A stretch of 64,000 bases of DNA from Spirochaetia bacterium (GTDB lineage Bacteria > Spirochaetota > Spirochaetia > UBA9216): NCBI GenBank assembly GCA_965140585.1, contig OZ223270.1, positions 1 to 64,000 of the forward strand, read 5' to 3'. Under the pieces are notes generated by a model, which had not been told where the DNA came from, ran no database searches, and was given only the letters and a program-made list of their open reading frames with translations. How positions within the stretch are numbered: position 1 is the first letter of the stretch; the number at the start of each line of letters is the position of its first letter. This document shows positions 23,245 through 50,919 of the stretch, piece by piece. A program made the translations under genes and the position numbers.

Positions 23245-26200
23245 TCATCTTGCAAGAAGCTGCGGCATTGCAACATTACTGCCAAGCAGAACACTCATTT
23301 CCCAGTAGGTATTCTCGCCTCCGCTGAAAGTTCCCATGGTTCCAAGATTAAGGTAATAAGATGTCCCGTTTTTCACCCATGTCAGAGCCGCTCCTCCTTC
23401 AGCCTTGAAACTTGATGCAACATCACTGCTTCCTGCTCCGGACCAGTATCCGCCTGCACTTCCCCACAGTGCACCTTCAAAAGCCTGACTCCAGTCGGCA
23501 GAAGGCGCGGTCAGTACAGCTCGAAGGATGCCCTTTGTTTCTATAACATTGGACGGGGCATAATAATCAGTTACTGTTGCGTCGAAGGAATTCTCATAGT
23601 TAAAAAGGGCACCGGTAAAAAACTTAAGAATCGGAGAACTTAACAAGGTTATACCCAGATTCACATCCTGCATTATCTGACCTTTAACATTACCATCATC
23701 CATAAACTGCAGTCTTCCATAAGTTCGCGTTGTCAGAGGCCCAAGAATATCCGAGCCGTCGAGATCAAACCATGTGTCCGCAGCTGCTGTTATATCATTT
23801 TTATAAACGGCATTCCGATCAGGATAAAAGGTATCAGGTTCAATAATATATCTCCACTCCAGATCAAGACCAAGGAAATTATAGTCCCATGACAGCTTTG
23901 CCCCGTATACCGGATATACCGACAGGGTTTGAAAAAACTCGGAAAAGGAAACAAAGGACTCTTCAGAGAATACATAATCGGTTGAATAATAAAGACTGTC
24001 CGCATTAACACCGCCCCAGGGGGTAACTTTAAGTCCTATATCTATAAAACTGAAACTTAATCCGGCATCAATACTGTGAACTTGAAAACTTGCCTGACTA
24101 TTCTCACCGTAAGCACGATACAGCCGCTCCTGATCAAGCTTATACCCTGCATTGATTCCAAAAACACTGTTAAGTTCGGACTGATAACGCAGCTCACCCA
24201 GAAGGGTTATCTCCGACGGGCTGGCTACCAGCTGCACTGAAGAACCGAACTTATCAGCATGAGATCTGGCAAGCTGGTTATAGTAGTATGCAGTATTTTC
24301 ATATGCCGAATCCTGCAGATACACCTTCTTGTAATACTTCATGGCCTCGTACCAGTTGCCGTAGCGCTGCTCTACCACTCCAAGTTTATATGTAGCCGAA
24401 ATATTCCAGGGATCAACAGCTATCACATACCGGAACTGCTCCGAAGCCTTTTTATTTTCCCCCTCATCGAGATAATAGTCACCAAGCTCATAGCGGATGA
24501 GATAGGTGTCAGACTGCAGATAATAGGCAGCTCTTTTCAGCCTGCCCTGAATAATCCGGTTTACCAGCCGATCAAAGCGCTCATTACTGCGCAGACTGGA
24601 AGACAGCATACCGAGCTGCTCGCCGAGGATGGTCACAAGCTCATCAGCCTCCTCCTCAAGCCCCTCATAATATACGCCGCTGCCGGAGCTCTCCTGAAGA
24701 CTCATTGAAGCAAGAGTGAGATATCTGGATTCAATATTCTCTGCTGAGGGATATTCGGAAAGAAACATCTGCGCATCGGACTGATAGAGTCCAAGCCGGG
24801 CATTTTCATCACCAAACCGCATAAGATTATCATAAAGTAGAAAATGCATACCCGAATCTGTGCTGACTGGCTGTCCTTTTTCACTAAACAGAATTGCGGC
24901 AGCATCCTGGTAACGTCCATCCTGACGATATAGCCATGCAAGCATATATGAAGCCAGCTCAGGCTCGAAAGGCATAACCGATTCGAGTTCTCTCATATCT
25001 TCCTCAATATTCCATGCCCAGCCGGAAGCGGAAACAGCGGCACTGAAAGCCTCTTCATCGGCAACCTCCTTACCTGACAGCTCTTCAATCAAGGATTCAT
25101 AGGAATCAAGCTCAGTAACCCATGACTCAAAAAGCTCAACGGCATCTCTTAAATCATCAACCGCACCGGCATATTCACCGGCCTTATTGTCATAGTCCTG
25201 TTTCAGCAGGGGAGCTTCGGGCTCTTTGGCTGATGCAGAGGCAGCTTTCGACATGGCTGAGGCAGCAGAAGAAAGCCTCTGCCTGACGCCCTGTGCATAT
25301 GAAGAGAATCCTTTTAACAGCTCAAGAAGCGAATAGACTTCTACCGAGAGCTGTATAAGATCAGCATTCCGTCTGCTGAACTCAGATGCGGCACGATATG
25401 AATACGTTGTAAGAACATAGCGGATCTGCTCGATAGCCTCTTTTTTCAGCCCGTTCCAGAAGTAGGTCTGGGCAAGTTCCTGCCTCAGCATCAGATTCCC
25501 CGGATCCTCTTTAAGTTTCTCGAGGTACCCATTAATAACATCATCCCTCATTCTGAGCTTCTGAACATATATTTCCAGTTCGGATTCAAGTTCAGGACTC
25601 CTGACAAAAGTTGACTCTACAAGACTTCCTATTCGATCCGACTCTTCCTTCATTCCGGAAGAAAGATACGACTGCTGAAGCAGCAGATAAAACTCCAGGT
25701 ATTCCGGATGACTTTCGATAGCTGTGGTATAAACTTCCCGTGCATATTCAGCATAGCCGTTGGCTTCCTCTATCTTACCAAGTTCTGCAAGGCTGTCTGT
25801 ATCAGTAAGAGACTGGGCAAGGGCTTCATCAAGAATCCGTTCCGCTTCTTCAGAACTGGACATCCAGAGATATGTAAGCCCAAGATTTACTTTAAGATTG
25901 AGATCCTCGGGAAAAAGCGCAAGACCACGTGTAAAAAAATCTATAGCCTTATAGTAATTGGCAGTCCAGGCTGCAACCTTTCCCGCCTCGGACCAGAGCG
26001 CTGCATCCTCAGGCGCTATATTCAATGCCCTTTCATACAGAGCAAGACTCTCCTTAACATCACCCTTCCACAGTCTGTTTTTAGCCGAAAGAATGACTGG
26101 TTCTGGATCTGAAGAGTCAAGAGCCATAGCTTTGTTCAGATTTTTAAGAGCGTTCTGATAATCTCCAAGAAGCGAGTATACAAGTGAAACCTCAAGATAT

Positions 26201-26928
26201 ATCCCCTTATCATCGGGATGTGCGCTGATATATGCATCATACTCGTTGAGTGTCAGGAAATAGCTGTTTATTGATGTATCGTCGGTATTCTGCGGAAAAA
26301 CTGACGGAATGTTTTCAAAATCAAAGTTTTCCGGGTTCAGAAAAACCAGGGAATCGAGATAGAAATAGTATTTTCCGTCAAACCCCCTTTTCTCCGAAAC
26401 TTCAACCCTTATCCTGTGGGTACCCTTAGTGAGCTCAATTTCATTTACACGGTTCCAGTAGTACGAAGGGGTATAGCCTTCAACAACTGTAATATTTTCA
26501 CGGTACACATTCACCCGCTCGCCGTTATCAAGAATATAAGAAAAAGGGCTTGAATACGAAGGAAGAAGATCATCCTGCGGCCCCGGAGGGGTACCACCAT
26601 ACCAGAACTGATACATGCCGTCGGAGGGGACATAGAAAACATATTCCGCAAAGAAGGCTGCGCCACCCTGCTGGCCGGTAGTTCTGTTAAGCTGCAAACT
26701 TCTAAAACCTGAACATCCGTAGTTAGAGACAGGCTCACCGGCAAAATTGGTTGAAACAGCAGCTTCGCCTTCAACAAAAACAAGGCCAGGATTCGTTCGG
26801 GCAAAAACCGGAGTAAGAAGGGGGTCTCCGTCAGGATTTCCTTCCTGAGAGAAGGCTGGAGTCATTATCATCAGGCCTAAACCGGCAATTATCCCAAAAA
26901 ATCTGCCTGCTCTGGTAATGTTGAACAT
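23245..26928 (-). CDS. PelB-like exported TPR protein with an N-terminal jelly-roll/CBM-like domain and a beta-strand-rich C-terminus
   Basis: Signal peptide; two TPR clusters; C-terminal ~330 aa of amphipathic aromatic strands; GGAGG RBS; divergent from pelDEFG. Confidence 0.65.
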   Translation of the reverse strand: MFNITRAGRFFGIIAGLGLMIMTPAFSQEGNPDGDPLLTPVFARTNPGLVFVEGEAAVSTNFAGEPVSNYGCSGFRSLQLNRTTGQQGGAAFFAEYVFYVPSDGMYQFWYGGTPPGPQDDLLPSYSSPFSYILDNGERVNVYRENITVVEGYTPSYYWNRVNEIELTKGTHRIRVEVSEKRGFDGKYYFYLDSLVFLNPENFDFENIPSVFPQNTDDTSINSYFLTLNEYDAYISAHPDDKGIYLEVSLVYSLLGDYQNALKNLNKAMALDSSDPEPVILSAKNRLWKGDVKESLALYERALNIAPEDAALWSEAGKVAAWTANYYKAIDFFTRGLALFPEDLNLKVNLGLTYLWMSSSEEAERILDEALAQSLTDTDSLAELGKIEEANGYAEYAREVYTTAIESHPEYLEFYLLLQQSYLSSGMKEESDRIGSLVESTFVRSPELESELEIYVQKLRMRDDVINGYLEKLKEDPGNLMLRQELAQTYFWNGLKKEAIEQIRYVLTTYSYRAASEFSRRNADLIQLSVEVYSLLELLKGFSSYAQGVRQRLSSAASAMSKAASASAKEPEAPLLKQDYDNKAGEYAGAVDDLRDAVELFESWVTELDSYESLIEELSGKEVADEEAFSAAVSASGWAWNIEEDMRELESVMPFEPELASYMLAWLYRQDGRYQDAAAILFSEKGQPVSTDSGMHFLLYDNLMRFGDENARLGLYQSDAQMFLSEYPSAENIESRYLTLASMSLQESSGSGVYYEGLEEEADELVTILGEQLGMLSSSLRSNERFDRLVNRIIQGRLKRAAYYLQSDTYLIRYELGDYYLDEGENKKASEQFRYVIAVDPWNISATYKLGVVEQRYGNWYEAMKYYKKVYLQDSAYENTAYYYNQLARSHADKFGSSVQLVASPSEITLLGELRYQSELNSVFGINAGYKLDQERLYRAYGENSQASFQVHSIDAGLSFSFIDIGLKVTPWGGVNADSLYYSTDYVFSEESFVSFSEFFQTLSVYPVYGAKLSWDYNFLGLDLEWRYIIEPDTFYPDRNAVYKNDITAAADTWFDLDGSDILGPLTTRTYGRLQFMDDGNVKGQIMQDVNLGITLLSSPILKFFTGALFNYENSFDATVTDYYAPSNVIETKGILRAVLTAPSADWSQAFEGALWGSAGGYWSGAGSSDVASSFKAEGGAALTWVKNGTSYYLNLGTMGTFSGGENTYWEMSVLLGSNVAMPQLLAR

Positions 26929-26971
26929 TCTTCTTTATCCTCCGTACTCTATCCGGTATAATATAATACTA

Positions 26972-28372
26972 ATGATGCAGAAAACCTACTTCAAACATAT
27001 ACTGGAAACAGCAGCAATAATATTTGTAATAGCTGCCGCTGATTTTTTTATCAAATTCGGCGGAACCGGTTTCTCGGACCTGCTATTTTCACCATATGTT
27101 ATTGCATCACTAATCTGCGCAGTTATATACGACCGCATCTCAGGTTTTACAGCAATACTGCTATCTGCCGCTGCAGCTGGTATTCAAATTCTAACAGGCA
27201 GCGAACCTTTTTCAGGAAACATGCTCGGATACACCCTCCCCGCTGCTACCAGCCTCGTTCTTGTTTATATCTTCGGCACCATAAGGGCAAATGACCGGAT
27301 AAAAATGCAGGAAATAAAAAACCGCCACAGAGAACTTGCCGCAGAGAATCAGAGACTGAAAAGTCTTTCTGATGCACAGTTTGAAATAACCAGAGAACTG
27401 GAGCAGAGAATTTCAGGACAGAGAGTTTCAATGAGCTCGCTTTACAACCAGATGCACAGAATGGACAGCCTGAACCTGAATAAGTCACTCGATATCCTGC
27501 TGGAAACTGTTGAAATGTTCACGGACACAACATCGGCATCCATCTGGGCGCCTTCCAACGTTCCCGGCTTCCTTTCACCCGCAGCATCAAGGAGTAAATC
27601 AGGAAAGATAGACAACTCTGAATTCCTTGATATGGAAAACAGCATTGAGGGCTGGGTCTTCAGGAACAACAGAATGATATCTGTCCGAATGATTAACAAT
27701 TTCGAACATCTAAGTAAAATGGACGCCGGTGATAATATAATAACTCTCCCTATATCTATCCAGAAGAAAGTCTGGGGCGTTCTAAATATCGAAGAAATGC
27801 CTTTTATAAAATACAACAGCTATACCGAGAAAATACTTGAAATCATAATAAGCCTGGCCGAACCCGCACTTGCGCGCGCTGTGAACTATGAAAAACAGTC
27901 CCAGCAGAACGAAATTGATAAAATCACCGGCCTGCCGCTGTTTTCACAGCTTTACAATATGCTTGAAAAATATAAACCGGAAACCGGCGAAGAACCGCCG
28001 AAGATCAGCCTCCTGATTGTTGAGATAGCAAACTACCAGCAGCTGTTTGAAAGCTTCAAAAAAAAGAAACTCTGGAATGTATTCACCGATTTCATCAATG
28101 AAATTCAGCTTCTTGCTGCAGGTATGGCAGAATTTTTCATGTTCAAATCTGAGAACCAGTTTGCGGCACTGATCCCCGGAGTATCCTCTGACGGAGCATC
28201 ACTTCTATGCCTCGAAATACTCGAAATGGCTAATAACGGGCTTGGAGAAATCGACGGACGGGCAGTGCAGCCTGAACTGATAATCGGCTATGCAACTCTC
28301 GGCGATAACGCATCTGATACAGAAGAGCTTATCAAGGAAGCGGAACACATCCTTGAAATTCAGAAGATCTAG
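26972..28372 (+). CDS. pelD: PelD-like protein (4 TM, coiled coil, GAF, degenerate GGDEF)
   Basis: Four N-terminal TM helices, GAF (VWGVLNIEEMPF), IDKITGL start of a GGDEF fold with SENQF at the active-site position; first gene of the pel-like operon. Start moved to MMQKTY. Confidence 0.75.
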   Translation: MMQKTYFKHILETAAIIFVIAAADFFIKFGGTGFSDLLFSPYVIASLICAVIYDRISGFTAILLSAAAAGIQILTGSEPFSGNMLGYTLPAATSLVLVYIFGTIRANDRIKMQEIKNRHRELAAENQRLKSLSDAQFEITRELEQRISGQRVSMSSLYNQMHRMDSLNLNKSLDILLETVEMFTDTTSASIWAPSNVPGFLSPAASRSKSGKIDNSEFLDMENSIEGWVFRNNRMISVRMINNFEHLSKMDAGDNIITLPISIQKKVWGVLNIEEMPFIKYNSYTEKILEIIISLAEPALARAVNYEKQSQQNEIDKITGLPLFSQLYNMLEKYKPETGEEPPKISLLIVEIANYQQLFESFKKKKLWNVFTDFINEIQLLAAGMAEFFMFKSENQFAALIPGVSSDGASLLCLEILEMANNGLGEIDGRAVQPELIIGYATLGDNASDTEELIKEAEHILEIQKI

Positions 28373-28377
28373 GGAGG

Positions 28378-29100
28378 ATGGACATGTCTGCAAACAGCTA
28401 TGACTACATCAAATCCATGGATCAGTACTTTGCACCTAAAACCCCCTTTGCGGCGTACAAGGCAGCAAGAAAAGGCTTTATCCCCGCTGAAGTTTTCATC
28501 TACAAGACAACATCAATTGAACCGGTTATAGAAAATCCTGATAATCTGTATGAAATAGAAAGAATCCTTGCCCAGCGTGACAGAGACATCATGACAAACA
28601 GTCTGCTTGTTGACATCCTCAATAAACTGGTCAAAAACAGAGATAAAGAAATTGCGCTGTTTGCAGCTGAAAGCATAAATGCCATAGAAAACGAATACAA
28701 CCGGAAGATTGAAGAAGCAGCAGATGATAATTTCAGGCTGAAAGCCGATCTCTACATGCAGATGTCTGTGATCAACAAGATGACTCCGGATCTTAAAAAT
28801 TTCTACCTTCAGGAATCTTTCGGGTGCTACAGGGAAATCCAGAAGAAGAAAGAACTGATACGTAAGGACCGTCTTAACATGGCAAGAGTACTTCTGGAAC
28901 TTAACCTGCCTTTTCAGGCAAAAGTAGTTCTTGCAGATGCCGAAAAGGGCGTTCCCGAATTTATACTTATGAAAGCTGAAATTGCCTTCAGGGAAAGAGA
29001 TTTCGCAGAAGTGAGCAGATACCTCAGCCTTCTTGAAACACATCGTAATGATCTGGATACTGAAACCCTGGAACTCATAGACTTCTGGAAGGAACAATGA
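28378..29100 (+). CDS. PelE-like HEAT/TPR protein
   Basis: Position between pelD and pelF; L..LV.N.D.EIALFAAESINAIE HEAT-like motif followed by TPR-like helices; no TM segment. Confidence 0.6.
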   Translation: MDMSANSYDYIKSMDQYFAPKTPFAAYKAARKGFIPAEVFIYKTTSIEPVIENPDNLYEIERILAQRDRDIMTNSLLVDILNKLVKNRDKEIALFAAESINAIENEYNRKIEEAADDNFRLKADLYMQMSVINKMTPDLKNFYLQESFGCYREIQKKKELIRKDRLNMARVLLELNLPFQAKVVLADAEKGVPEFILMKAEIAFRERDFAEVSRYLSLLETHRNDLDTETLELIDFWKEQ

Positions 29101-30494
29101 ACGGAAGAAAAAAAATAGCACTCGTCCTTGAGGGCTCCTATCCCTATATCACAGGCGGTGTGTCAGCCTGGACCCATGATCTTATTTTTAATCTTCCTGA
29201 ATTTGATTTTATTCTATATACCATATCACCCGAAGAGGATATGGAACTGCGCTACACCCTTCCTGAAAATGTGATACTGCACCATGACATAATACTCAAT
29301 AAACACTACGAATCATCAGAGCACCCGCCTACACGGAAAGACACCGATACCGCAGTTTTAATAGCTCACGATCTTACCGAACACGGGGATCCGGGAAGCT
29401 TCAGACAACTTGTCAAAATAATACCCGAAGGCTATTTTCTATATGATAAGGCCATAAACAGCGAGACCGGCTGGCAGAGGATGATAGAGGGGAACCTGAA
29501 GAATAACCCTATCTATGCATTTACAGATTACTACTGGGCCTGGAAGTCAGCCTTCGATATGCTGTTCACAATAATCGGAAGCAGGGCGCCACAGGCGGAT
29601 ATATATCATGCAATTTCAACCGGCTTTGCCGGAATAGCGGCTATTTCAGCCTCGATAAGGCACAACAAACCATGCATCCTGACCGAGCACGGTCTTTACC
29701 ACAAAGAACGCGAAATGGAAATCAGAAAGACCAACATCATCCGCGGATACCAGCGCGATATGTGGACCGGCCTTTACAATAACTTCAGTACAATCTGCTA
29801 CAAGCATGCTGACAAAATCATCTCTCTGTTCGAAGAGAACAGACGGAAACAGCATGAACTTGGCGCCGATTCCCAGAGGACCGAAGTAATTCCGAACGGT
29901 ATAGATATTCAGAGATTCATGGTTGAGCGCGAGGAAAAAGAAGGTTTTCACGTGGGACTTGTAGGTAGGGTTGTCCCGATAAAGGATATTAAAACCTACA
30001 TTTCTACGGCAAAAATCGTACTGGAGCGGATACCCGAGGCAATTTTTTACTGCATCGGCCCTACAGATGAGGATCCCGGCTACTACAGGGACTGCGTGAT
30101 GCTGACTGAGAGCCTGAAAATAACAGACCGTTTCAAATTTACAGGCAGGCAGAATGTACTGGACTATTATAAATTCCTTGATGTGATGGCACTGACAAGT
30201 GTCCGCGAGGCACAGCCGCTTGTTATACTTGAAGCCTACTGCGCAGGTGTTCCGGTTGTATCAACCGGTGTCGGAAACGTTCCAGAGATGCTTGATTATG
30301 ATGAGCGTTTTATATCGGCGCCAAAGGATGCCCAGAAGCTGGCATCTGCAATAATTTATCTGTACAGTCATCCCGATGAACGAAAGTCACTCATAGAATC
30401 AAACCGGTACAAAACCGTAACCTTCTACGACAAGACTGACCTGCATAAGAAATATTCGGAAATCTATACCACCACAGGGAGGAATGCTGAATAA
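29097..30494 (+). CDS. pelF: GT4 glycosyltransferase PelF
   Basis: LEGSYPYITGGVSAW, YHAISTGFAG, LTEHGLY.KER, GRVVPIKDIKT, EAQPLVILE (EX7E). Confidence 0.93.
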   Translation: MNGRKKIALVLEGSYPYITGGVSAWTHDLIFNLPEFDFILYTISPEEDMELRYTLPENVILHHDIILNKHYESSEHPPTRKDTDTAVLIAHDLTEHGDPGSFRQLVKIIPEGYFLYDKAINSETGWQRMIEGNLKNNPIYAFTDYYWAWKSAFDMLFTIIGSRAPQADIYHAISTGFAGIAAISASIRHNKPCILTEHGLYHKEREMEIRKTNIIRGYQRDMWTGLYNNFSTICYKHADKIISLFEENRRKQHELGADSQRTEVIPNGIDIQRFMVEREEKEGFHVGLVGRVVPIKDIKTYISTAKIVLERIPEAIFYCIGPTDEDPGYYRDCVMLTESLKITDRFKFTGRQNVLDYYKFLDVMALTSVREAQPLVILEAYCAGVPVVSTGVGNVPEMLDYDERFISAPKDAQKLASAIIYLYSHPDERKSLIESNRYKTVTFYDKTDLHKKYSEIYTTTGRNAE

Positions 30495-31825: not shown

Positions 31826-32001
31826 AATTGACTGAATTCAAGCTCAAAGATTGATTTGTCGATTATAAAATCAGAAAATAGTACTAGGCAAATACGAATA
31901 AAGTTTATTGAAAATATCTTATATCGGGATATCTTTATATAGATCTAATAATTGTAATAATGCAGCCGTAACGAAGGTTAACGGCCTTTAAGGAGTGTTA
32001 T

Positions 32002-33084: not shown

Positions 33085-33102
33085 TATCCCTTTGAAAATT
33101 TT

Positions 33103-33201: not shown

Positions 33202-34029
33202 ATGAAAGGACTTATTGTAGCAGCCGGGTACGGCACCAGATTTCTTCCCGTGACCAAAACCATCCCGAAGGAAATGCTTCCTCTTATAGATAAACCGTCA
33301 ATTGCTTTTATAATTGAGGAGTTTATTAATTCCGGAATCGACGAGATTCTAATTATTACATCCAGACGTAAAAAAAGTCTGGAAGACTTCCTTGACAGAG
33401 AGATCGAACTTGAGTCGGTATTTGACAAAGAGGGTTCCGCAGCAAAGGCTGCAAAAATCAAGCCCTATGACGCGAAATTTCTTTTTGTACGTCAGCAGGA
33501 AATGATGGGAACCGGACATGCACTTATGCAGGCAAGACCGATGCTTGACGGCGAACCCTTTGTTGTAGCCTATCCTGACGACCTGCACTTCGGAGACAAG
33601 CCGCTGGCCCTCCAGCTTATTGAAAAATACAGAGAAACCGGCTGCAGCGTCATGGCGACCCTGCATAATCCGCCGAACCTTGAACGCTACGGGATTCTTA
33701 AGCTGGCCGACGATGGCCTGCACGTTACTGACATCGTTGAAAAGCCGGCTCCGGGAACCGAACCAAGCTGTGAGGCTTCAATAGGACGGTATCTATATAC
33801 TCCTGAAATTTTTGACTTACTGGAAGAAGGATGGTCAAAACATACTTCTGGTGAATACTTCCATACATATGCTCTTAATAAAATGATGTCGGCTGGAAAC
33901 GTAGTTTACTGCGAAACCGAGGGCGAGAGACTCGATACGGGAGCCCCGGCGGGCTATCTGCAGGCGATAATTAAGTACGCAATGCAGGACCCCGAACTTG
34001 CTGAAGTTCTGCGCAGCGAAGTGAAATAA
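33202..34029 (+). CDS. galU: UTP--glucose-1-phosphate uridylyltransferase family
   Basis: AAGYGTRFLPVTKTIPKEMLP, VRQ...GTGHA, VEKP, GRY, DTG. Confidence 0.85.
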   Translation: MKGLIVAAGYGTRFLPVTKTIPKEMLPLIDKPSIAFIIEEFINSGIDEILIITSRRKKSLEDFLDREIELESVFDKEGSAAKAAKIKPYDAKFLFVRQQEMMGTGHALMQARPMLDGEPFVVAYPDDLHFGDKPLALQLIEKYRETGCSVMATLHNPPNLERYGILKLADDGLHVTDIVEKPAPGTEPSCEASIGRYLYTPEIFDLLEEGWSKHTSGEYFHTYALNKMMSAGNVVYCETEGERLDTGAPAGYLQAIIKYAMQDPELAEVLRSEVK

Positions 34030-36652: not shown

Positions 36653-36758
36653 AAAATTGCCGTATATATAATGTATCATAATTTCGGGAAAATGCTAAAA
36701 ATTTTTATAATTGAAATCGCATGATATTTTTCCGGAAAATGATATAATGTAAGTAAAT

Positions 36759-43800: not shown

Positions 43801-46800
43801 AGTATCAGCAGTAAGAATCGTGACACTTGCAAGTTCAATTTCGTTTGTATCGCCAATTCCTGTTGATGCGTTAAGATCTACAGTATTAGCATTTATATCG
43901 ATATCTGTATCGGCCGCTGCAGAGTCATAGATCTCTCCGGCAGCAGCTGTAAGGGTTACAGTTGATGTACCGGCGCTTATTGTCGGAATTACTGAATTTC
44001 CTATGAGGATGCTTCCGGTTGTTGAAACAAGGGTTTCAGCTCTGTTTACATTATACAGCTTATTGATTGTCAGCCCGTTACTCTCGGTTATCTGAACTGT
44101 ACCAGATGTATTATTATCCAGATCTACAGTAGAAACTGTCGTTTCGAGTACATTTGCATCTCCGACACCCGTATCTGCATCGATAATGAGATTGCCGCAG
44201 ATTATATCCGCAGTTCCATCATCATCTGTAATTCCCCCGGCAGCAGATTCAAGACTGATGTCACCGCTTGTAGTAAGAGAACCGCCGACAAAGGCAATAT
44301 CCCCGGCTGTAGCGGCTCTCAGTTCAAGATTATCGTTTCCAAGGTTCCAGGCATTATTTACAATTATTCCGGCATTACGGTTATAGACAATTATTGTTTG
44401 AACAGAGGCTCCGGCTGTAGAGGAGGATATCTGCGAACTGCTTAGAGCACCGTTTGTTTCGGCGATATTTATATTTCCTGATGGTGCGGCCGCAGTAGTT
44501 GTAAGATCAAGGCTTCCGCCGCCGAGATCAATTTCAATCTCCTCTCCGGCTGCCGAAGTTCCTATTGCATCCTGCGCTGTCAGTGATATTGAACCAGCGG
44601 TAATATCCGAGGCGGCATCTGTTGCGGCTGCCTCAAGGATACTTCCGGAGGCTGCAGTCAAAGCAACAGTGCCTGAAGCGCTTACTGCAGCAACATTGAC
44701 GGTCCCCGCTGTTGATACAATATTTACATCGCCGGAAGCCGCTGTAATGGAAGTGAGTGTTACATTGTTTGCCTCTACTATGCTTATATCTCCAGCGGCT
44801 GCAGTAGAAGCAGTTATACTTCCCACATTTGTGTTTAATGAATTCAGGGTCCCTATGTCTGTCCCTGCAGTCAAAGTAAGTACGGTCGTACTATTTACAG
44901 CTCCTACCCTTGCTGTATTATCAGCTTCCTCAATAGCATCTCCGGCAGCTGTAAGATTGATTGCCCCATTTCCTGTTGACTCTACGACATCCACAGTCAG
45001 ACCATTTGCACCGGCACTCATATCAATCTGACCGGCAGCTGTCTGCACAAGGGATACTGAATCCATAGTAACTACATCGGTTCCGGTTATATCTATAGTT
45101 CCGGCCAATCCTGTCGTAATGTTTCCATATATCAGCAAGACATTCGCTCCGGTAGTATCTATTGTAATGTCACCGCTTGTACTGCTCATAACAACACCAT
45201 TAGAAAGTGTAAATGCTGATGATGAGTTGATGTCTATATTACCCGAACCATTTGCTGTTACGGTATTGCTTAGCGTAATTGGATTTGTTCCGGTGCTCGT
45301 CAGCGTTATTGCTCCATTCGCTCCGGTCGTCGCAATGCTGTTGCCGGTTGTTATTGCTCCGGCAGTCTGTATAGTTACATCACCGCCGCTGCTTGTTACT
45401 CCGCTTCCGGCTCCCAGAATAATTGCAGTGAATTCATTGATGCTTAGAATGCCTCCGGCAGAAGCAACCAGGGTTCCAACATTGGTATTAAGGGCACTGC
45501 CTGCCCCGATATCTGTTCCGGCACTTAATGTAAGAACGGTTGTGCTCCCTGCGGCTCCTATAAGTGCCGTATTATCAGCTTCTTCTATAGCGCTGCCGAC
45601 AGCTGTGAGGTTGATAGCGGCAGAGCCTCCGGTGGCTTCTATTACATCGACAGTCAATCCGGTTGCTCCTGCGCTTACATCTATCTGCCCGTTCACAGTC
45701 TGGATAAGCGATGTTGTATCCATTAATACCGCATCAACAGAAGTGAGATTGATCGTACCAGCACCGGCTGTCGTAATACTTCCGTTTACGGTCAGAACTC
45801 CTCCGTTTAATGTATCCACAGTAATATTTCCGGTACCGCTGCCAAGGACTATGCCATTATTAAGGGTAAAATCATCTCCGGAATTGATGTCCACAATACC
45901 GGACCCGCCGGCACTCACAGCATGTCCCAGAGTAATCGTGTCGCCATTCCCAGTTGTTGTGAGTGTAAGGTTCTGATCGGCGCCGCTTGATACGGTATTA
46001 CCGGTTGTTATAGAACCGTCAGCTTCAATACTTAAAGCACCTGCTCCGCTTGAAATACCGCCGGTCGCATTACCAAGCTGTATCGCACTCACTTCATCCA
46101 CCGTAAAGCTTCCAGTGACTGTGCCTCTGATAACCGACACTGAGGTATCAAGCGCAAAGGATGCCGGGGCATTAACCCATAATATGTTTGCAGCTATGTC
46201 TGCTGCCGCATCTCCGGATGCATCCGTAATACCGCCGGTCGCCGTTACCTCAACGTCTCCGGCTCCGGCATCAATCAGACCGACCGGAAACACCCCGAGA
46301 GAATCAAGGTATATATCTCCGTTTGCAGAAGTTGAATCGGCATTCAGGGCCGTTGATATATCAAGCTCGATACTGGAGGCTGCGGTTCCGATATCTCCGT
46401 TTGAGCTCAGACTTATGGTATTTCCGCTCACATCGGCCACAGCATCATTAGCATTTACGGTGATCGCTCCGCCGCCTGTCAGCGTTACATTACCGTTTGC
46501 TGCGGTAATATCTAAAATCAGAACATCGTTGTTTTCAATGATATCAATATCACCCGCAGCGCTGAGTGACAGATCGAGTGAAACAACATCTGTCTCAACC
46601 GCACCGTTTGCACCGCTGTTGCCTATTCCGTCTAAAGCACTAATCTGCAATTCTCCGCCTGCAGCAATATCACTTCCGCCGGTGTCACCGCCGTCTATAA
46701 CTTCACCGCCTACTGTAATATCAACTGCCGGAGCTCCGGCACTGGTTGTAACAAGTCTTCCAAGAGTAAGATCGGTTCCGGAACTTACAGAAATTGTTCC

Positions 46801-49800
46801 GCTGCCGGCATCAACTACAGCTCCGTCATTTATGATCATCGCCCCGGTTCCGGCGGTAAGGCTGACTGCGCCGGCTCCTGAACCCGTGATATCTCCGCTG
46901 ATAGTTAATGCAGTTCCTGCATTAAGAGTAAGAGTTCCTGTGTAGGCAGAAGCCCCCGCACCAACAGTGAATGCGGCGGGTTCGCTAATATCTACATTTG
47001 CCGAATTAGTGAAAGTAACTGTATTAAAAGCATTACTGCCGTTTGTAAGAGTAATATCATTTCCAGCGCCTGCTTCAAATGCAGCAGCTCCGCTTATGCT
47101 CAGGGCTGCTCCCTGGGTTATATCTCCTCCGACAGTACAAGCAAGCCCGCCTGCTGTAGTTATAGCCGGAAGGGCAATACCGGCTCCTGTACCGGTGATT
47201 ATAAGGTCATTAATATTTGAGGACAGTACTCCGCCGAGGGTTACACTGCCGGTACCGGCATCAATTGTAAAATCACGATTTGCCCCTGAGCCGGCAACAA
47301 CTCCGGAAATCTGAATATTTCCACCGGCAGCTCCTGTATCGATACCGCTGGCTCCGGTGAGACTTATACCCGCAACCGAAACATCGTCAGCGGTAGTTAT
47401 AATATCACCATTGAGCGTCAATGGCGCGCCTGTTGACATTCCGCCGTTAAAATTGCATGTACCGGAAAGTCTTACACTTGTTGTATTCTGAAAATTAACA
47501 GCTCCGGTTATCGTGCAGCCGCTGTCCATTCTGACTGAGTATGCAGAAGCTCCAACATTGAGGGTACCAACCGTCAGAGCTTCGCGAAACCGGATTGTCC
47601 CGGTTGAAGAGGTTATATCTATCTGGTTAGAACCGGCTGTGACTGTGACACCTGCACCGAAATCAACACCGGTGGAATTTGTAATTATCAGGTTATCAGC
47701 TGTAGTAAGACTTGTTCCAACTGTAAATGCGGCAACTGCATCAAATTCGAGATCAAAGTAATCGGTGACACCGTATTCCTGAACTGCGCCTCCGCCTGTA
47801 TACCTGACCGTACCGCTGTCTGTATCTGTAGCAGAAACATTTGTACCGCCTGCTCTGCGCAGAATTGCTGTGCCCTGTAGATCAATAGAGCTGATACTGA
47901 GATCATTTGTCCCGGTCCGGAGTTCGGCGCCTGCGGAAACTATTACATCCTCACCTGAAGAATCAACAGAAAGCACCGGATAGCCGGATGCTATTACAAC
48001 ATCATCAGCCGCTGCCGGAACATAGCCCTCAACCCAGTTTCCGGCTACGGACCAGTCGCCGCCGGAAGAACCGCCCCAGTTGCATTCACGGTAAAACGTA
48101 ACTGATGAAGCATCAGTTACTGCTGTAACCTGTGTTCCTGCATTACCCGCAGTATCGCTGAAATCTATAGTGAATGCAACGGCCGCTTCTGCAATTGTTC
48201 TGTCTGCCGGCAGAAGCTGGTAAACAGCTTGATAATCATCGCCGCCCAGTGACGATTCAGTTGCCGCCCTCGACAGACTTGTTAGGGTCACAACAGGCAG
48301 GGCGGACAGTGTTTCAGACGATGTGAATGTAAGAGTAATTGCATCCTGAATCTTGGCGGTTGCAGTATCAGCATTATCGGATTGAATATGTACGGGAGCA
48401 AGCGTCGGCAGAACCTGATCAACAGTAAGTGTGACTGCACTCGTGCTTCCGGTTGTTGAGTTTCCGGCAATATCGGTAATTACAGCCCTGAGCTGTACCG
48501 TGTCGCCTTCACCAAAGTTTGTCAGAGCTTCAAACTGTGCGGCCGTTGCAGTGTGATCCTTATTTGTACTTATATCGCCGCCGCCTATAGCTATAGCCCC
48601 TGCGAGGTTCTCCCATGCACCGCCTGTCGCAAACCCCTGCAGCTGCACTGTTCCGCCGCTGAGACTTGCATCATTTGCTATGGGGATGGTTACGGTTAGT
48701 CCCGTATTTGTTGAGTTCCAGTAGTTTGCAGTAACTGTTCCGCCGGTAGCGGTTACAGCTCCGGCAGTGAATGCTGTCGGAATAATTTGATCTACAGTAA
48801 GCGTTGTTACACTTGCGCTGCCGGTTGTTGAGTTTCCGGCGACATCGGTAATAACCGCCCGGAGCTGGACTGTGTCGCCTTCACCGAAACCGGTTAAAGC
48901 CTCCAGCTGTGCAGCCGTTGCAGTGTGGTCCTTGTTTGTATTGATATCGCCGCCGCCTATGGCAATGGCTCCGGCAAGGTTCTCCCAGGCTCCGCCTGTC
49001 GCAAACCCCTGCAGCTGTACTGTTCCACCGCTGAGGCTTGCATCATTTGCTATCGGGATGGTTACGGTTAGTCCCGTATTTGTAGAGTTCCAGTAGTTTG
49101 CGGTAACTGTTCCGCCGGTTGCAGTCACTGCTCCGGCTGTAAACGCTCCGGGGGCTGCAACATCAAGCTCGCTTGTATCAGTTGCATCCAGACCGGTATT
49201 TCCTGCCGGATCTGTTAAAGCTACGGTAAGAGTTACAGTACCGTCATTTAGGGCGCTTAAATCATCATTTATTGTATCGGTTGCTGTTGCTATTGTTCCG
49301 CTGCCGGTGACAGGCCCACCTCCGCCGCTGCTTGTATATGTGTAGCTGTAATCTGCTCCTACTTCAGCTCCTGTGAAGTCAAAGTCCAGGCTTGCAACTT
49401 CTGAGGCATTGATATATCCGTCAACATCAGCAATAGCAACCGTATATCCGGCGGGTGCGGTTTGATCGACAGTAAGCATTGTTGCACTCGCGCTGCCGGT
49501 TGTTGAGTTTCCGGCGACATCGGTAATAACCGCCCGGAGCTGGACTGTGTCGCCTTCACCGAAACCGGTTAAAGCCTCCAGCTGTGCAGCCGTTGCAGTG
49601 TGGTCCTTGTTTGTATTGATATCGCCGCCGCCTATGGCAATGGCTCCGGCAAGGTTCTCCCAGGCTCCGCCTGTCGCAAACCCCTGCAGCTGTACTGTTC
49701 CACCGCTGAGGCTTGCATCATTTGCTATCGGGATGGTTACGGTTAGTCCCGTATTTGTAGAGTTCCAGTAGTTTGCGGTAACTGTTCCGCCGGTTGCAGT

Positions 49801-50919
49801 CACTGCTCCGGCTGTAAACGCTCCGGGGGCTGCAACATCAAGCTCGCTTGTATCAGTTGCATCCAGACCGGTATTTCCTGCCGGATCTGTTAAAGCTACG
49901 GTAAGAGTTACAGTACCGTCATTTAGGGCGCTTAAATCATCATTTATTGTATCGGTTGCTGTTGCTATTGTTCCGCTGCCGGTGACAGGCCCACCTCCGC
50001 CGCTGCTTGTATATGTGTAGCTGTAATCTGCTCCTACTTCAGCTCCTGTGAAATCAAAGTCTACGCTTGCAACTTCTGAGGCATTGATATATCCGTCAAC
50101 ATCAGCAATCGCAACCGTATATCCGGCGGGTGCAGTTGTATCAACATCAGCATTGCTTGTGTCTGCGACTGTAGTAGTATTTCCTGCATCATCGGTTGCA
50201 GTAATACTTACGTTTAAATTGGAGGTATCGATCCCGTCCAGAAGAGCATAACTAGCAGTCCATGTTTCAGCTGTATTTGCCATGGCAACCGCAGCCCCGC
50301 CTCCGAACTCTGTAAAATCGGCAGCCGCAGAGCTGATGTCCCCGTTATTATCGCCTCCGGCGGTATTGTTCCAGGTTACGGTGACAGTATCGCCTGATAT
50401 AAAAACACTGCCTGTGCCGGTAGCTCCGCTTATGCTTAGATTACCGTCGGTCACTGTGGGAGACTGATTATCACAGGAGAGATTTGTACCGTTATCAACC
50501 GGTCCGGTTGTACCATCACCATTGGTAACAGTAACTGTTATCCTCACCGTTGAACTGTCTATAATACCTGCGACTATTGTATACGAAGCTGTCCATATGC
50601 CATCACCCGAAGCTGCGTCATCACCGCTACCGTCATCAACAGCAGCAGCTGCAGCTGCCCCCCCGAACTGGGAAAAATCTACGCTTACCGCGGTTATATT
50701 ATTTGTGGCCGGCGGAGCATAGTTTAGAGGACTATTTGTACTATCCCATTCTACAACAATGGTATCTCCGGTTATAAAGACGCTTCCTGTGCCGGTAGCT
50801 CCCGAGATAGTCATATCGGTTGTCTGCACATTAGGCACTGCAAACAGAAAAACTATTGAGCAAATGTTAAATACAGAGGTTAATAGCAGTAATTTAATTC
50901 TCTTTCGGTTGAACAGCAT
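37900..50919 (-). CDS. Giant acidic surface protein/adhesin: signal peptide, Ig-like repeats, long beta-helix-like region, C-terminal FlgD-Ig domain
   Basis: Single ~4340-aa ORF rich in T/A/G/D/S; D.AGN Ig-like repeats; WGG...DWSVAGNW...VP...DDVVI; ends ...FSWDGTNRAGNIVARGIYFIRI...RKVMIVK. Start moved to MLFNRKR. Confidence 0.88.
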   Translation of the reverse strand: MLFNRKRIKLLLLTSVFNICSIVFLFAVPNVQTTDMTISGATGTGSVFITGDTIVVEWDSTNSPLNYAPPATNNITAVSVDFSQFGGAAAAAAVDDGSGDDAASGDGIWTASYTIVAGIIDSSTVRITVTVTNGDGTTGPVDNGTNLSCDNQSPTVTDGNLSISGATGTGSVFISGDTVTVTWNNTAGGDNNGDISSAAADFTEFGGGAAVAMANTAETWTASYALLDGIDTSNLNVSITATDDAGNTTTVADTSNADVDTTAPAGYTVAIADVDGYINASEVASVDFDFTGAEVGADYSYTYTSSGGGGPVTGSGTIATATDTINDDLSALNDGTVTLTVALTDPAGNTGLDATDTSELDVAAPGAFTAGAVTATGGTVTANYWNSTNTGLTVTIPIANDASLSGGTVQLQGFATGGAWENLAGAIAIGGGDINTNKDHTATAAQLEALTGFGEGDTVQLRAVITDVAGNSTTGSASATMLTVDQTAPAGYTVAIADVDGYINASEVASLDFDFTGAEVGADYSYTYTSSGGGGPVTGSGTIATATDTINDDLSALNDGTVTLTVALTDPAGNTGLDATDTSELDVAAPGAFTAGAVTATGGTVTANYWNSTNTGLTVTIPIANDASLSGGTVQLQGFATGGAWENLAGAIAIGGGDINTNKDHTATAAQLEALTGFGEGDTVQLRAVITDVAGNSTTGSASVTTLTVDQIIPTAFTAGAVTATGGTVTANYWNSTNTGLTVTIPIANDASLSGGTVQLQGFATGGAWENLAGAIAIGGGDISTNKDHTATAAQFEALTNFGEGDTVQLRAVITDIAGNSTTGSTSAVTLTVDQVLPTLAPVHIQSDNADTATAKIQDAITLTFTSSETLSALPVVTLTSLSRAATESSLGGDDYQAVYQLLPADRTIAEAAVAFTIDFSDTAGNAGTQVTAVTDASSVTFYRECNWGGSSGGDWSVAGNWVEGYVPAAADDVVIASGYPVLSVDSSGEDVIVSAGAELRTGTNDLSISSIDLQGTAILRRAGGTNVSATDTDSGTVRYTGGGAVQEYGVTDYFDLEFDAVAAFTVGTSLTTADNLIITNSTGVDFGAGVTVTAGSNQIDITSSTGTIRFREALTVGTLNVGASAYSVRMDSGCTITGAVNFQNTTSVRLSGTCNFNGGMSTGAPLTLNGDIITTADDVSVAGISLTGASGIDTGAAGGNIQISGVVAGSGANRDFTIDAGTGSVTLGGVLSSNINDLIITGTGAGIALPAITTAGGLACTVGGDITQGAALSISGAAAFEAGAGNDITLTNGSNAFNTVTFTNSANVDISEPAAFTVGAGASAYTGTLTLNAGTALTISGDITGSGAGAVSLTAGTGAMIINDGAVVDAGSGTISVSSGTDLTLGRLVTTSAGAPAVDITVGGEVIDGGDTGGSDIAAGGELQISALDGIGNSGANGAVETDVVSLDLSLSAAGDIDIIENNDVLILDITAANGNVTLTGGGAITVNANDAVADVSGNTISLSSNGDIGTAASSIELDISTALNADSTSANGDIYLDSLGVFPVGLIDAGAGDVEVTATGGITDASGDAAADIAANILWVNAPASFALDTSVSVIRGTVTGSFTVDEVSAIQLGNATGGISSGAGALSIEADGSITTGNTVSSGADQNLTLTTTGNGDTITLGHAVSAGGSGIVDINSGDDFTLNNGIVLGSGTGNITVDTLNGGVLTVNGSITTAGAGTINLTSVDAVLMDTTSLIQTVNGQIDVSAGATGLTVDVIEATGGSAAINLTAVGSAIEEADNTALIGAAGSTTVLTLSAGTDIGAGSALNTNVGTLVASAGGILSINEFTAIILGAGSGVTSSGGDVTIQTAGAITTGNSIATTGANGAITLTSTGTNPITLSNTVTANGSGNIDINSSSAFTLSNGVVMSSTSGDITIDTTGANVLLIYGNITTGLAGTIDITGTDVVTMDSVSLVQTAAGQIDMSAGANGLTVDVVESTGNGAINLTAAGDAIEEADNTARVGAVNSTTVLTLTAGTDIGTLNSLNTNVGSITASTAAAGDISIVEANNVTLTSITAASGDVNIVSTAGTVNVAAVSASGTVALTAASGSILEAAATDAASDITAGSISLTAQDAIGTSAAGEEIEIDLGGGSLDLTTTAAAPSGNINIAETNGALSSSQISSSTAGASVQTIIVYNRNAGIIVNNAWNLGNDNLELRAATAGDIAFVGGSLTTSGDISLESAAGGITDDDGTADIICGNLIIDADTGVGDANVLETTVSTVDLDNNTSGTVQITESNGLTINKLYNVNRAETLVSTTGSILIGNSVIPTISAGTSTVTLTAAAGEIYDSAAADTDIDINANTVDLNASTGIGDTNEIELASVTILTADTASGNIDIDHTADAGLSVTTMTTGGASTIDFDQTGNQSLTLVTVTASNGDITVTNTGGTGADTGLGSITADTADDTVSISASGAIDDSTASDTTADVTAAVIILTADDSGIGQAANGAVDVRAAVGLSADSSADGSDIALYDPVGPTPVVLLTTGGTGDIVLTSLNAVTDPGGNAENDISASDLNITAQGGINLDTAVSTMTLNAQAAGSVTIRETDAVTFTSVTASNGPVTLSTVNAGNIVLTNIVSSNDTDVNDISVTAANGDIEVDTIDAQGSNADISLTTANGAVTNTDSTSNVTGDVLTISTANGTGVSFGQAISTTVNTLNVGNSAGGDIAIDESGAVTVTGLSTVAGGNIRLDADGTITLNGAGASAAGAGGIILTGIGAGNNLDINAAINGGTGGITLTGGTSIDTNSNVTTSNNTIQFASNTYITDDATVTVSTGAGVGGTITFSGTLDGEGSDFTDNLTLIAGTGNIDFNAAVGSSVDMGNVLISSALDVTADAAFSANTLTQTAGTGDTQFDGAITLQALGGMDITTSTVTINSTINTLAAGNGGTVTITNAGLLDIAAGANMSLDGAFLQDGAGDVETAGNITTTNDSIYFTRNVTITDNGTVSLDTDAGAGTITFNGTLNGDDANFDDDLSLTAGTGNIDFNGIVGGANDLGDVSINSAADVTADLAFSANTLTQTAGTGDTQFDGAVVLQAAGGMDLTTNTVTINSTIDTSTAGNGGAVTITNAGLLDIAPGADISLDGAFTQDGAGAVQTAGNVTTTQDDIYFTSAVTVTDDESIVFDTDINDTGSIQGDLTFNSTVVSSSADTGILSLDSGIGTLTLNGVVGSGLIPFRYVLIRGAGNCTSTAATIDISAQDLYIDAGGYTLVLQKHLSADNLIFYDGTLNLNARTLTTNGDLAVFGGTYSAIDSARAATHAGNIYFAYPNTGALAYYPSAGTYNAGTAVFSTAPGAAFANLNGSTINAGGNFYVNGAGLPGTAAWNLIVNDNSTVTGLDTAPGDNITDWPYGTNYAVVFRSAVDYCNASNWLGVDPQNGNTDGGNNVANVDSTFPEIVNYETVFDNVIRVTFTEAIENDSDEISAAVSNVYVDGNSGLTFSASYIDADDAAPFNFTTTDGAGDLTTFYLQIDRTTATWNTDATGTSDGNTGSSDREGNHQAISASLSMLKGSLFDAEGHNHIRNYGLNTEDIADGSTNETFADECRPNLVAVVGGRVNHQAAASDEIYDGHNFLHLRYSEPVDIGDDVNYAIGAGAPPANDRADETFATGEHGGHIVQNGAVVDVVGYFSYTGTFLSGSRDGNPAITSMYRSGTENPSGDFGITLYVAGWRTDDTALWPGYLGDPAETLLSHSVNTDVTAGGVSIKALANSFIKDADGNTIEPSTEPYRGTDAIADPVITTAVSDILVSGTTSLPNISMPADHITGWDVEPPIFSVYDDTVIPNTYEIISIANVTTGKIERLEFFIRDNETSQGGFSQAIDAGIVHPEAGANLGVRDATCAIDAANSIDPYTAFFIADVNDTSLTAGYNTGITTTVQDSSIFLGPITVADDSYFALTLNDLHTWNTRTALQIKYDASIGYITDLAGNLIPTTSISLSGVERIPPYIELALGAVGDTKIYIRFSEPVFGAGYVNVAETDFSFSGTTNSLNGITAISYLSGGLLEAWFNLDSGLTADEILEAKIIPQATQIYDKLGNAMEVTSIHRFSDIGIGVMNPIWAADSLHNNSLYGTDTSLRIFDGTGYLTDSNITLEASILAADRFKGLSASLYYDVDPSESVLNDGFWLPSYNNALVPAANTSARGLNPYSSSEGTRKFMIPSDDSEIETGNEVQFLLKVGDLFCANLLDKDDPRTIVPWSFSIKDIKKQAAGVTILNNVINPVEGDEKTVLTYDLPNAGMVTINVFNMAGDLVKVIHRGAQGAGTYNFSWDGTNRAGNIVARGIYFIRIVAPGIDEYRKVMIVK
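48815..50133. repeat. Near-identical tandem duplication with 675-bp period inside the giant gene
   Basis: 48815-49458 matches 49490-50133 with only a few substitutions; identical antisense ORFs at 48872 and 49547. Confidence 0.95.

Follow-up and report, generated by a model that had tools for sequence, protein, structure and literature searches.

The first 64,000 nt of contig OZ223270.1 (GenBank assembly GCA_965140585.1, forward strand), from a Spirochaetia bacterium of the GTDB lineage UBA9216, form the window analysed here, and they contain a locus of two neighbouring modules, at 22405-33084 and 33202-50940. The first carries genes for a Pel-type exopolysaccharide (EPS) system: an HDOD-domain protein, a divergently transcribed exporter, the core pelDEFG and a lipoprotein of 360 aa, which we refer to as Lipo360. 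The second (module 2) begins with a GalU-like gene and ends with the gene for a giant secreted protein, and between them encodes a DUF2804 protein, a family-2 glycosyltransferase (GT2) and two further lipoproteins (Lipo211 and Lipo379). An earlier sequence-only reading had taken all of this as a single matrix locus, a rearranged non-canonical Pel system with its own export and anchoring module. The explanation that we consider probable is instead that two modules lie side by side, a Spirochaetota-type Pel-like EPS system and an independent giant-protein set, and that their adjacency is a feature of the lineage and not a conserved functional unit.

Pel is among the most widespread biofilm polysaccharides, and the rules for its production come from Pseudomonas and Bacillus: PelD binds cyclic di-GMP (c-di-GMP), the polymer must be deacetylated, and PelB carries a ring of PelC. 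A diderm variant that is conserved and yet has no c-di-GMP I-site, deacetylase or PelC would reveal which parts of the system are truly essential, and the variant described here, which is widespread among spirochaetes, points both to a new input, the HDOD protein, and to a new exporter architecture in which a carbohydrate-binding module (CBM), a TPR scaffold and a porin are joined.

The Pel core in the window and in other spirochaetes

The reference for the Pel comparisons was the annotated canonical pelABCDEFG operon on the Pseudoalteromonas sp. THAF3 plasmid NZ_CP045419, and its proteins were searched by phmmer against all 23,307 six-frame open reading frames (ORFs) of at least 60 aa from the window's genome, which is 98.5% complete. 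Among the seven canonical queries only PelF (E 6.4e-75) and PelG (E 1.5e-30) gave matches, while PelA, PelB, PelC, PelD and PelE found nothing at E<0.01 among these ORFs. The same two proteins are recognised by their families with wide margins, PelF by the equivalog NF038011 (318.9 bits, cut-off 100) and by PF11997 (220.5 bits), and PelG by PF16933 (268.8 bits, cut-off 29) over model positions 1-445 of 452.

PelE and PelD are more divergent and were approached through profiles of 11 orthologues each. The PelE-like profile aligns to residues 162-323 of the 326-aa canonical PelE with an hhalign probability of 97.7% (E 2.5e-12), and the aligned orthologues (239-253 aa as aligned) have, by eye, no hydrophobic N-terminal stretch, which means that this PelE comes without its two membrane helices. 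Profile comparison thus identifies the 240-aa protein as a true homologue of the cytosolic domain of PelE lacking both transmembrane (TM) helices. In an even sample of the phylum such TM-less PelE proteins occur in 17 of 301 genomes and 11 of 126 genera, other classes included. The PelD-like protein of the window gives weak matches to GAF (E 1.6e-4) and GGDEF (E 1.6e-3), both domains are detected in all 11 orthologues, and a colinear hhalign match covers residues 24-291 of canonical PelD, its TM and GAF regions (E 4e-4, probability 35%). By these domain and profile matches the protein retains the TM-GAF-degenerate-GGDEF architecture of PelD.

The c-di-GMP-binding I-site does not appear to be retained. 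Within the last 160 residues, RxxD is missing from eight of the 11 PelD-like proteins and stands in the remaining three only at columns that are not homologous, and the window protein reads G-x-A-E at the I-site position in the GGDEF/FimX register; the PelD of the reference operon has a single RxxD, at residue 367. The PelD of Bacillus cereus, by contrast, has an intact RxxD and uses it to bind c-di-GMP (PMC7112168). The window's genome contains 44 GGDEF matches, and the organism therefore uses c-di-GMP, yet on its residues the PelD-like protein is unlikely to read this signal in the canonical manner. Since the canonical I-site is absent, control is probably exerted by another route.

The sequence-only reading had recognised neither pelA nor pelC in the window, and this absence now extends to the whole genome. 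PF03537, the PelA hydrolase family, has no match in the genome (canonical PelA, as a positive control, scores 55 bits). DUF2194 (PF09960) is the family of the deacetylase PelADA, as a spirochaete member matches the B. cereus PelADA structure PDB 9ZAU with E 2.5e-44; it too is without a match in this genome and in the 10 others of its family f1. Together with the phmmer result this leaves pelA and pelC unfound anywhere in the genome, and tblastn with canonical PelA and PelC was likewise negative in all 79 spirochaete loci introduced below. PelC is called essential and a hallmark of the system in the part of PMC12141448 on which we draw.

These 79 loci were collected by a pattern search with the exporter alignment, taking one genome per GTDB species; 76 of the records are spirochaete-named and three are labelled 'bacterium', and the nearest to the window is L042 (94% identity). 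A second set, of 61 relatives (numbered with G, as loci are with L), was searched genome by genome, and PF16933 marks PelG in 19 of them; the relatives are metagenome-assembled genomes throughout. By tblastn the exporter is present in 77 of the 79 loci, PelD in 60, PelG and PelE in 57 each, PelF in 56, HDOD in 47, DUF2194 in 22 and Lipo360 in 19, and the core is complete in 52 and incomplete in 27. Fetched neighbourhoods searched by tblastn show the HDOD gene, the exporter gene and pelDEFG in synteny in 11 relatives, which represent several families, and with synteny across dozens of spirochaete genomes the clustering of the Pel core is not a matter of chance. Two layouts are found, the divergent one of the window and a colinear one, HDOD-pelDEFG-exporter-DUF2194.

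That the module is a decaying remnant, which has lost PelA, PelC and the c-di-GMP site and no longer makes or exports a polymer, seems to us very improbable. Three components essential to the P. aeruginosa system were indeed not found, and Lipo360-like fragments are present at two loci (L058 and L097), but all seven genes of the module are intact ORFs, their proteins are 92-97% identical to those of genome G001 and remain syntenic at 32-70% identity across families, the core without PelA and PelC is complete in the 52 loci just mentioned, and both the exporter N-domain and PelE have kept their invariant motifs.

DUF2194 scores above cut-off in six of the 61 relatives, each time with pel as its neighbour; the 11 genomes that represent the window's family, its own included, give no such match. 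GH114 is found in 20 of the 61 relatives and near pel only in G037. In the latter genome (locus L036, approximately 16922-17170, of the colinear HDOD-pelDEFG-exporter-DUF2194 type) a short GH114-like frame precedes the HDOD gene by about 1 kb; it is a 239-aa open frame that covers model positions 40-119 of 231 with E 2e-13. A second and more canonical type of PelFG, accompanied by DUF2194 and by no such exporter, is found within the same class in G015, G029 and G052. At L032 (G015, 4698-11140), and also at L031 and L038, it comprises a 228-aa PelE of the TPR type, PelF, an extended PelG (659 aa) and a divergent DUF2194 gene; PelD-like or exporter matches were not found near these three loci, and the PelG of L032 scores 391 bits on PF16933, well above that of the window.

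A literature search brought up no description of Pel genes in spirochaetes. The string 'Spirochaet' is absent from the main texts of PMC7112194 and PMC7112168 as far as these were available, and in the text supplements of the former, an operon survey from 2020, spirochaetes stand in the list of screened genomes and are missing from both operon tables that give species names.

Exporter, HDOD protein and Lipo360

The divergent gene upstream of pelD encodes a 1,227-aa TPR protein that we predict, from its modelled fold, to be the outer-membrane exporter of the system. As for all structural claims made here, this rests on a predicted model, in this case an AlphaFold2 (AF2) model of residues 28-1227 built on nine orthologues (mean predicted local distance difference test score, pLDDT, 80.3), in which an N-terminal beta-sandwich leads into some 660 residues of helix and the C-terminus forms a barrel of 16 strands. 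When the Foldseek candidates were realigned with VIA, the barrel matched PgaA (4y25) with Z 24.3 and a root-mean-square deviation (rmsd) of 2.7 over 279 aa, and BcsC with Z 19.5-20.0 (20.0 for 9b8h); model residues 786-1196 matched residues 805-1193 of PelB in the PelBC structure 9h80_M with Z 19.9 and rmsd 5.6 over 342 aa, a likeness at fold level only. PgaA, BcsC and PelB are known 16-strand EPS porins, as stated in the accessible part of PMC12141448. With the whole model as query the Foldseek list is dominated by TPR proteins. At the N-terminus a single hydrophobic stretch is followed by ...AFS/QE, which is compatible with either a cleaved signal peptide or a membrane anchor. The export half of the earlier claim of an own export and anchoring module is supported by the matches of the predicted barrel to PgaA, BcsC and PelB, whereas the anchoring half is not, as the giant set proves to be separately conserved.

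The beta-sandwich is the best-conserved part of the exporter, with 41 invariant columns in nine orthologues. Its ESM features lie nearest to CBM6, CBM35 and GH115_C clusters (scores 0.93-0.94), which we treat as a lead only; its profile found nothing significant among solved structures (best E 0.042), nor did Pfam, where CBM_6 appeared in one of nine members at E 0.023. A profile search of 1.84 billion representatives returned 394 relatives, 113 of them at E<=1e-30. Nearly all of these strong relatives are proteins of approximately 1,200-1,300 aa with the domain at the N-terminus, and in the weaker ones it occurs as repeats in GH115_C, CBM_35 or aBig_2 proteins or as a C-terminal appendage of PMT_2 glycosyltransferases, domain partners that would fit a carbohydrate-binding module.

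The HDOD gene, like those for the DUF2804 protein and for an esterase upstream of the giant gene, had not been named in the sequence-only reading. It stands beside the cluster in 47 of the 79 loci, and we regard its product as the best candidate for a regulator of the Pel module. The closest solved relative is 3hc1, an iron-binding HDOD protein of Geobacter sulfurreducens (E 1.7e-23), and the window protein keeps His110, His141-Asp142, His170, His173 and His197.

Of the three lipoproteins that had been linked to pel, only Lipo360 keeps this association beyond the family, with homologues beside pel in 19 of the 79 loci, and Lipo211 and Lipo379 do not. Lipo360 belongs to no Pfam family. Its AF2 model (pLDDT 67.5) is all-beta, and Foldseek found nothing at E<=0.001, with OspA as the top row at 1.4e-2; the top VIA rows are outer-membrane barrels, namely CymA (Z 11.3), a Bacteroides BAM subunit (9.7) and FadL (9.4-9.7), which provide a lead and not a fold assignment. 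Judged by this model, Lipo360 is unlike PelC in both size and fold. Long relatives encoded beside pel (638-692 aa) carry a C-terminal, lectin-like Laminin_G_3 domain in six of six cases, which ties the Lipo360 family to glycans.

Lipo360 homologues never share a locus with DUF2194. Among the 52 complete-core loci, 34 are fully flanked, that is with at least 3.5 kb on both sides, and 18 are short-flanked; 13 of the 34 have Lipo360 only, 12 have DUF2194 only, none has both and nine have neither, although in three of these nine pelG is followed by a lipoprotein or by Lipo360-like fragments. This mutual exclusivity may follow phylogeny, as kin are not independent.

The pattern also fits a replacement, and with it the idea that the polymer is canonical, partly deacetylated Pel, made with an unrecognised enzyme (Lipo360, the esterase at 51007-51981, the DUF2804 protein, or a member of carbohydrate esterase family 4, CE4, encoded elsewhere) in place of PelA. 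Deacetylation is required for Pel-dependent biofilm in B. cereus, according to the part of PMC13254593 consulted, and Lipo360, the DUF2804 protein and Lipo379 are all without a known function. We nevertheless consider such an enzyme unlikely: the Lipo360 model is all-beta and resembles an outer-membrane barrel, not an esterase or deacetylase fold, its long relatives gain a lectin domain and no catalytic one, the esterase and DUF2804 genes go with module 2 and not with pel, nine of the 34 fully flanked loci have neither partner, and the exclusivity may simply be phylogenetic. That the polymer might be unmodified or differently modified, as had been suggested earlier, remains a reasonable view, with a PelADA-type deacetylase absent here and present beside pel in other spirochaetes.

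In a Pel-like system of this kind PelF would polymerise a UDP-sugar at the inner membrane on a platform of PelD, PelE and PelG, and the exporter would take up the chain in the periplasm with its CBM-like N-domain and TPR scaffold and release it through its barrel, with regulatory input supplied by the HDOD protein. Lipo360 would probably handle the polymer at the outer membrane as a glycan-handling accessory. With neither a PelA hydrolase, a PelA-type deacetylase nor a PelC ring taking part, the product would probably be fully N-acetylated and uncharged, or otherwise different. More tentatively, and as a possibility that we rate on the less likely side, Spirochaetota may have a Pel class of their own without PelA and PelC, in which a periplasmic CBM-like domain, at the end of the TPR scaffold that faces the inner membrane, captures the nascent chain in place of the PelB membrane anchor, PelD without an I-site is placed under a metal-binding HDOD protein, and in the sub-type of the window a barrel-like lipoprotein, lectin-fused in relatives, replaces the deacetylase, giving a neutral polymer that is fully acetylated and is retained on the cell surface.

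The giant protein and its partners

The genes named in the sequence-only reading are all present, each as an intact ORF at or near the place it had been given (ORF list, Pfam and NCBIfam). For the giant gene the end at 50919 corresponds to the next ATG, at residue 8, and the first ATG extends the gene to 50940 and the protein to 4,346 aa. The product is rich in Thr, Ala, Gly, Ser, Asp and Asn (13.8% Thr, 12.7% Ala, 12.4% Gly, 0.6% Lys), shows no self-repeats by blastp, and has a single clear domain, FlgD_ig (PF13860, 45.6 bits, residues 4261-4333). Its 63 homologues range from 2,390 to 7,606 aa, and records from Spirochaeta, Oceanispirochaeta and Treponema name them 'FlgD immunoglobulin-like domain containing protein' or 'beta strand repeat-containing protein'. 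For the C-terminus, ESM Atlas scores stayed below 0.8. A reading of the tail as cargo of a type IX secretion system (T9SS) was considered and set aside, with TIGR04183 at 20.8 bits under its cut-off of 23 and the genome not searched for T9SS genes.

The C-terminal 1,099 residues were used as a query against the 61 relatives and the result was crossed with the presence of PelG. Homologues occur in 31 genomes, 14 with PelG and 17 without; five genomes have PelG only and 25 have neither. Genomes without PelG account for 12 of the 23 strong matches (E<=1e-100). We then retrieved the surroundings of the giant gene's 3' end at 12 loci, all outside genera g1 and g4, the only genera that keep the giant gene linked to pelFG. 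GalU and GT2 adjoin the giant gene in 10 of the 12 loci and Lipo379 does so in 10 of the 12; eight of the ten loci with GalU and GT2 belong to PelG-negative genomes (G012, G014, G018, G020, G032, G046, G054 and G056), among which G032 has its giant locus without Lipo379. Lipo379 adjoins the giant gene also in G001, G004, G006 and G007. In the Pel-positive genomes G005 and G044, the other two of the ten, pel is on another contig or 3.5 Mb from the giant module. Pel and module 2 are adjacent only in G000, G001, G004, G006 and G007, and partly in G049. The GalU-GT2-lipoprotein-giant set is thus a separately conserved, class-wide surface-protein module that is independent of Pel.

Other members of module 2 are more narrowly distributed. 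DUF2804, for which no solved relative was found, is kept with GT2 in G001, G004, G005, G006 and G007, Lipo211 has tblastn matches only in G001, G004 and G006 (genera g1 and g4), and the esterase has an orthologue in the giant-gene loci of G001 and G007. The GalU-like protein scores 111.7 bits on PF00483 and 224.4 bits on TIGR01099, the latter under the cut-off of 326.8. One copy is found in the genome (tblastn, 1e-8), and it is therefore a housekeeping gene. As a speculation, GalU and GT2 may act on behalf of the giant protein, either by glycosylating this Thr/Ser-rich chain or by building a glycoconjugate for it.

P. aeruginosa has the matrix adhesin CdrA, which the giant protein resembles in its large size, in being secreted, in its repeat-rich build and in coming from a biofilm-capable organism, and the single matrix locus proposed earlier would make the giant protein a CdrA-like anchoring adhesin, with GalU, GT2 and the three lipoproteins belonging to the same export and anchoring apparatus. 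All the genes are indeed contiguous, and syntenic in G001, G004, G006 and, rearranged, in G007; in G049, of another family, GT2 and GalU stand beside pelG; and a giant homologue is present in 14 of 19 PelG-positive genomes against 17 of 42 PelG-negative ones, a contrast that is weak because related genomes are not independent. We regard this integrated locus as quite unlikely, however, as giant gene, Lipo379, GT2 and GalU are kept together in seven genomes without PelG (G012, G014, G018, G020, G046, G054 and G056), the set is located elsewhere in the Pel-positive G005 and G044, the sole genomic GalU is a housekeeping enzyme, and the giant protein has no adhesin domain in Pfam: a two-partner-secretion (TPS) domain was not found in its 4,346 residues, where DUF5753 (E 0.0042) fell below the cut-off, and a CdrB-like partner was not searched for.

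Several observations weigh against two independent modules of which the first is a Pel system without PelA, PelC and I-site. Pel and module 2 are neighbours in five genomes of two genera, and in G049, of a second family, GT2, GalU, a 474-aa ORF and PelG lie together on a 5-kb contig, so some functional tie between them may exist in the lineages where they are adjacent. On the Pel side, PF16963 (PelD_GGDEF) is matched neither by the PelD-like protein of the window nor by any of its 11 orthologues, and its GGDEF-like domain cannot be aligned to that of canonical PelD (hhalign probability 0.8%), for which reason the loss of the I-site rests on a generic GGDEF/FimX register. None of nine exporter orthologues matches a barrel family of Pfam at E<=1, PF24604 included (the PelB of the reference operon scores 123 bits on it), the barrel is structurally closer to PgaA than to PelB, and against one canonical PelB the exporter family reaches only the TPR level in hhalign, with a probability of 15%. 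PelC was sought, without result, with one canonical query by phmmer and tblastn and has no specific Pfam model, so that a very divergent PelC could be missed, and the negative result for a PelA-type deacetylase holds for PF09960 and PelA phmmer, other families (CE4, PF01522, other esterases) not having been searched for.

One PelG-negative genome offers a separate observation. In G012 (L125, 3104-3436) an HDOD-like fragment lies directly upstream of GalU-GT2-Lipo379-giant; it comprises 111 aa with 40% identity to the HDOD protein of the window and falls outside any ORF of at least 90 aa. This gene order is the one expected after loss of a pel cassette from between HDOD and GalU. In G049, a genus-mate of G012, pelG adjoins GalU.

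For giant 'adhesins' near EPS clusters in general, proximity is not evidence of coupling, and the GalU-GT2-lipoprotein-giant module deserves a study of its own.

Locus layout and known systems

The features of the locus are collected in the table. The junctions within pelD-E-F-G are tight or overlapping. The annotated starts of the PelD-like and exporter genes (26918 on the forward and 26928 on the reverse strand) overlap by 11 bases, head to head. Alignment places the first residue of the PelD-like orthologues opposite residue 19 of the window protein, so translation of the PelD-like gene probably begins at one of the two ATG codons at 26972 and 26975, and the divergent genes would then be separated by some 45 bases. 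Scans of 22000-38500 for promoters and terminators gave no excess over shuffled sequence (34 against 30.7 and 17 against 13.7), and operon limits are thus given by gene spacing only.

Table. Features of the two modules and the adjoining esterase gene, with window coordinates
Feature	Coordinates	Strand	Basis
HDOD-domain protein, 278 aa	22405..23241	+	PF08668, 164.9 bits
PelB-like exporter, 1,227 aa	23245..26928	-	AF2 model and TPR Pfam matches; hydrophobic N-terminus, beta-sandwich, TPR/helical region, 16-strand barrel
Exporter N-terminal beta-sandwich, CBM-like, residues ~49-197	26338..26784	-	Strands at model residues 22-170
Exporter TPR/helical scaffold, predicted periplasmic	24262..26250	-	Helices at model residues 200-862; TPR_19, TPR_2 and related Pfam families
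Exporter C-terminal 16-strand beta-barrel (predicted porin)	23266..24255	-	16 strands, model residues 865-1194
PelD-like protein, 484 aa: TM helices, coiled coil, GAF, degenerate GGDEF	26918..28372	+	GAF/GGDEF matches, hhalign
PelE homologue, 240 aa	28378..29100	+	hhalign to canonical PelE; no Pfam match
PelF, GT4 glycosyltransferase	29097..30494	+	NF038011, DUF3492 and Glycos_transf_1
PelG, inner-membrane component	30494..31825	+	PF16933
Lipo360, beta-rich lipoprotein, 360 aa	32002..33084	+	N-terminus ...ITSGC (lipobox-like, by eye)
GalU-like sugar-1-phosphate nucleotidyltransferase, first gene of module 2	33202..34029	+	PF00483
DUF2804 protein, 11-base overlap with the GT2 gene	34054..35139	-	PF10974, 437 bits
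GT2, 303 aa, no TM segment seen by eye	35129..36040	-	PF00535, 111.8 bits
Lipo211, small lipoprotein	36044..36679	-	N-terminus ...FLSGC (lipobox-like, by eye)
Lipo379, lipoprotein convergent with the giant gene	36759..37898	+	N-terminus ...LLTGC (lipobox-like, by eye)
Giant secreted protein, 4,346 aa from first ATG	37900..50940	-	FlgD-Ig-like domain at 37942-38160
Alpha/beta-hydrolase esterase (BD-FAE/Abhydrolase_3), 66 bases upstream of the giant gene, same strand	51007..51981	-	PF20434, 108.7 bits

The remaining window is housekeeping in character (ammonium transporter, glutamate synthase, zinc ABC transporter, TRAP transporters), and signs of mobile elements were not found in it. Directly upstream of the HDOD gene and on the same strand (21237-22314) lie a DUF2089-HTH gene, a 90-aa ORF and a gene for a SHOCT-like DUF2089-C protein. 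At 54836-56406 there are fragments of TRAP transporter genes, encoding 163 aa of a DctP protein (model positions 143-283) and 198 aa of a DctM protein, which look like a decayed duplicate of the intact DctPQM nearby at 58748-61649. Three alpha/beta-hydrolase esterases, of the BD-FAE, COesterase and Abhydrolase_3 types, are encoded within 13 kb (51007-51981, 57210-58679 and 62926-63963).

Compared with the P. aeruginosa-type pelABCDEFG system, the locus shares PelF, PelG, the cytosolic domain of PelE, the TM-GAF-degenerate-GGDEF arrangement of PelD and an exporter built from TPR and a 16-strand barrel, and differs in that no PelA and no PelC were found here. In canonical operons the exporter gene precedes pelC, whereas here it is divergent from pelDEFG, or follows pelG in relatives. 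Its product has an additional CBM-like N-domain and a barrel outside PF24604, PelE is without TM helices, and PelD lacks the RxxD I-site and a match to PF16963. The conserved HDOD and lipoprotein gene neighbours likewise set the locus apart from canonical pel.

The pelDEADAFG operon of B. cereus (Whitfield 2020, PMC7112168) resembles the locus in its pelD-E...F-G core without PelB-type sequence signatures, and the resemblance is greater in other spirochaetes, which pair this core with DUF2194, the homologue of PelADA (9ZAU; PMC13254593, in part), and G037 shares in addition its short GH114-like frame close to pel. The window's genome differs in having no DUF2194, in being that of a diderm with an outer-membrane exporter, and in that RxxD is not conserved.

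Among exporters the best structural matches of the barrel are PgaA and BcsC, the TPR-plus-porin exporters of poly-N-acetylglucosamine and cellulose. The partner genes here are pelDEFG and not pgaBCD or bcsAB, and in comparisons with the PgaA and BcsC sequence families the exporter matched none above threshold (TIGR03939 25 bits, cut-off 367). To our knowledge an N-terminal CBM-like domain is not known in either protein. Both work without an added lipoprotein ring, according to the part of PMC12141448 that we could use.

The giant protein differs from CdrA in matching no TPS domain, in its FlgD-Ig-like tail, in its partners (lipoprotein, GT2 and GalU) and in being kept in genomes that lack Pel. 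Finally, the HDOD protein recalls SadB of Pseudomonas, also an HDOD protein tied to biofilm control, although SadB has an extra N-domain and one pocket His, whereas the protein of the window consists of HDOD only and carries multiple His residues (PMC12075610, for SadB, as far as accessible).

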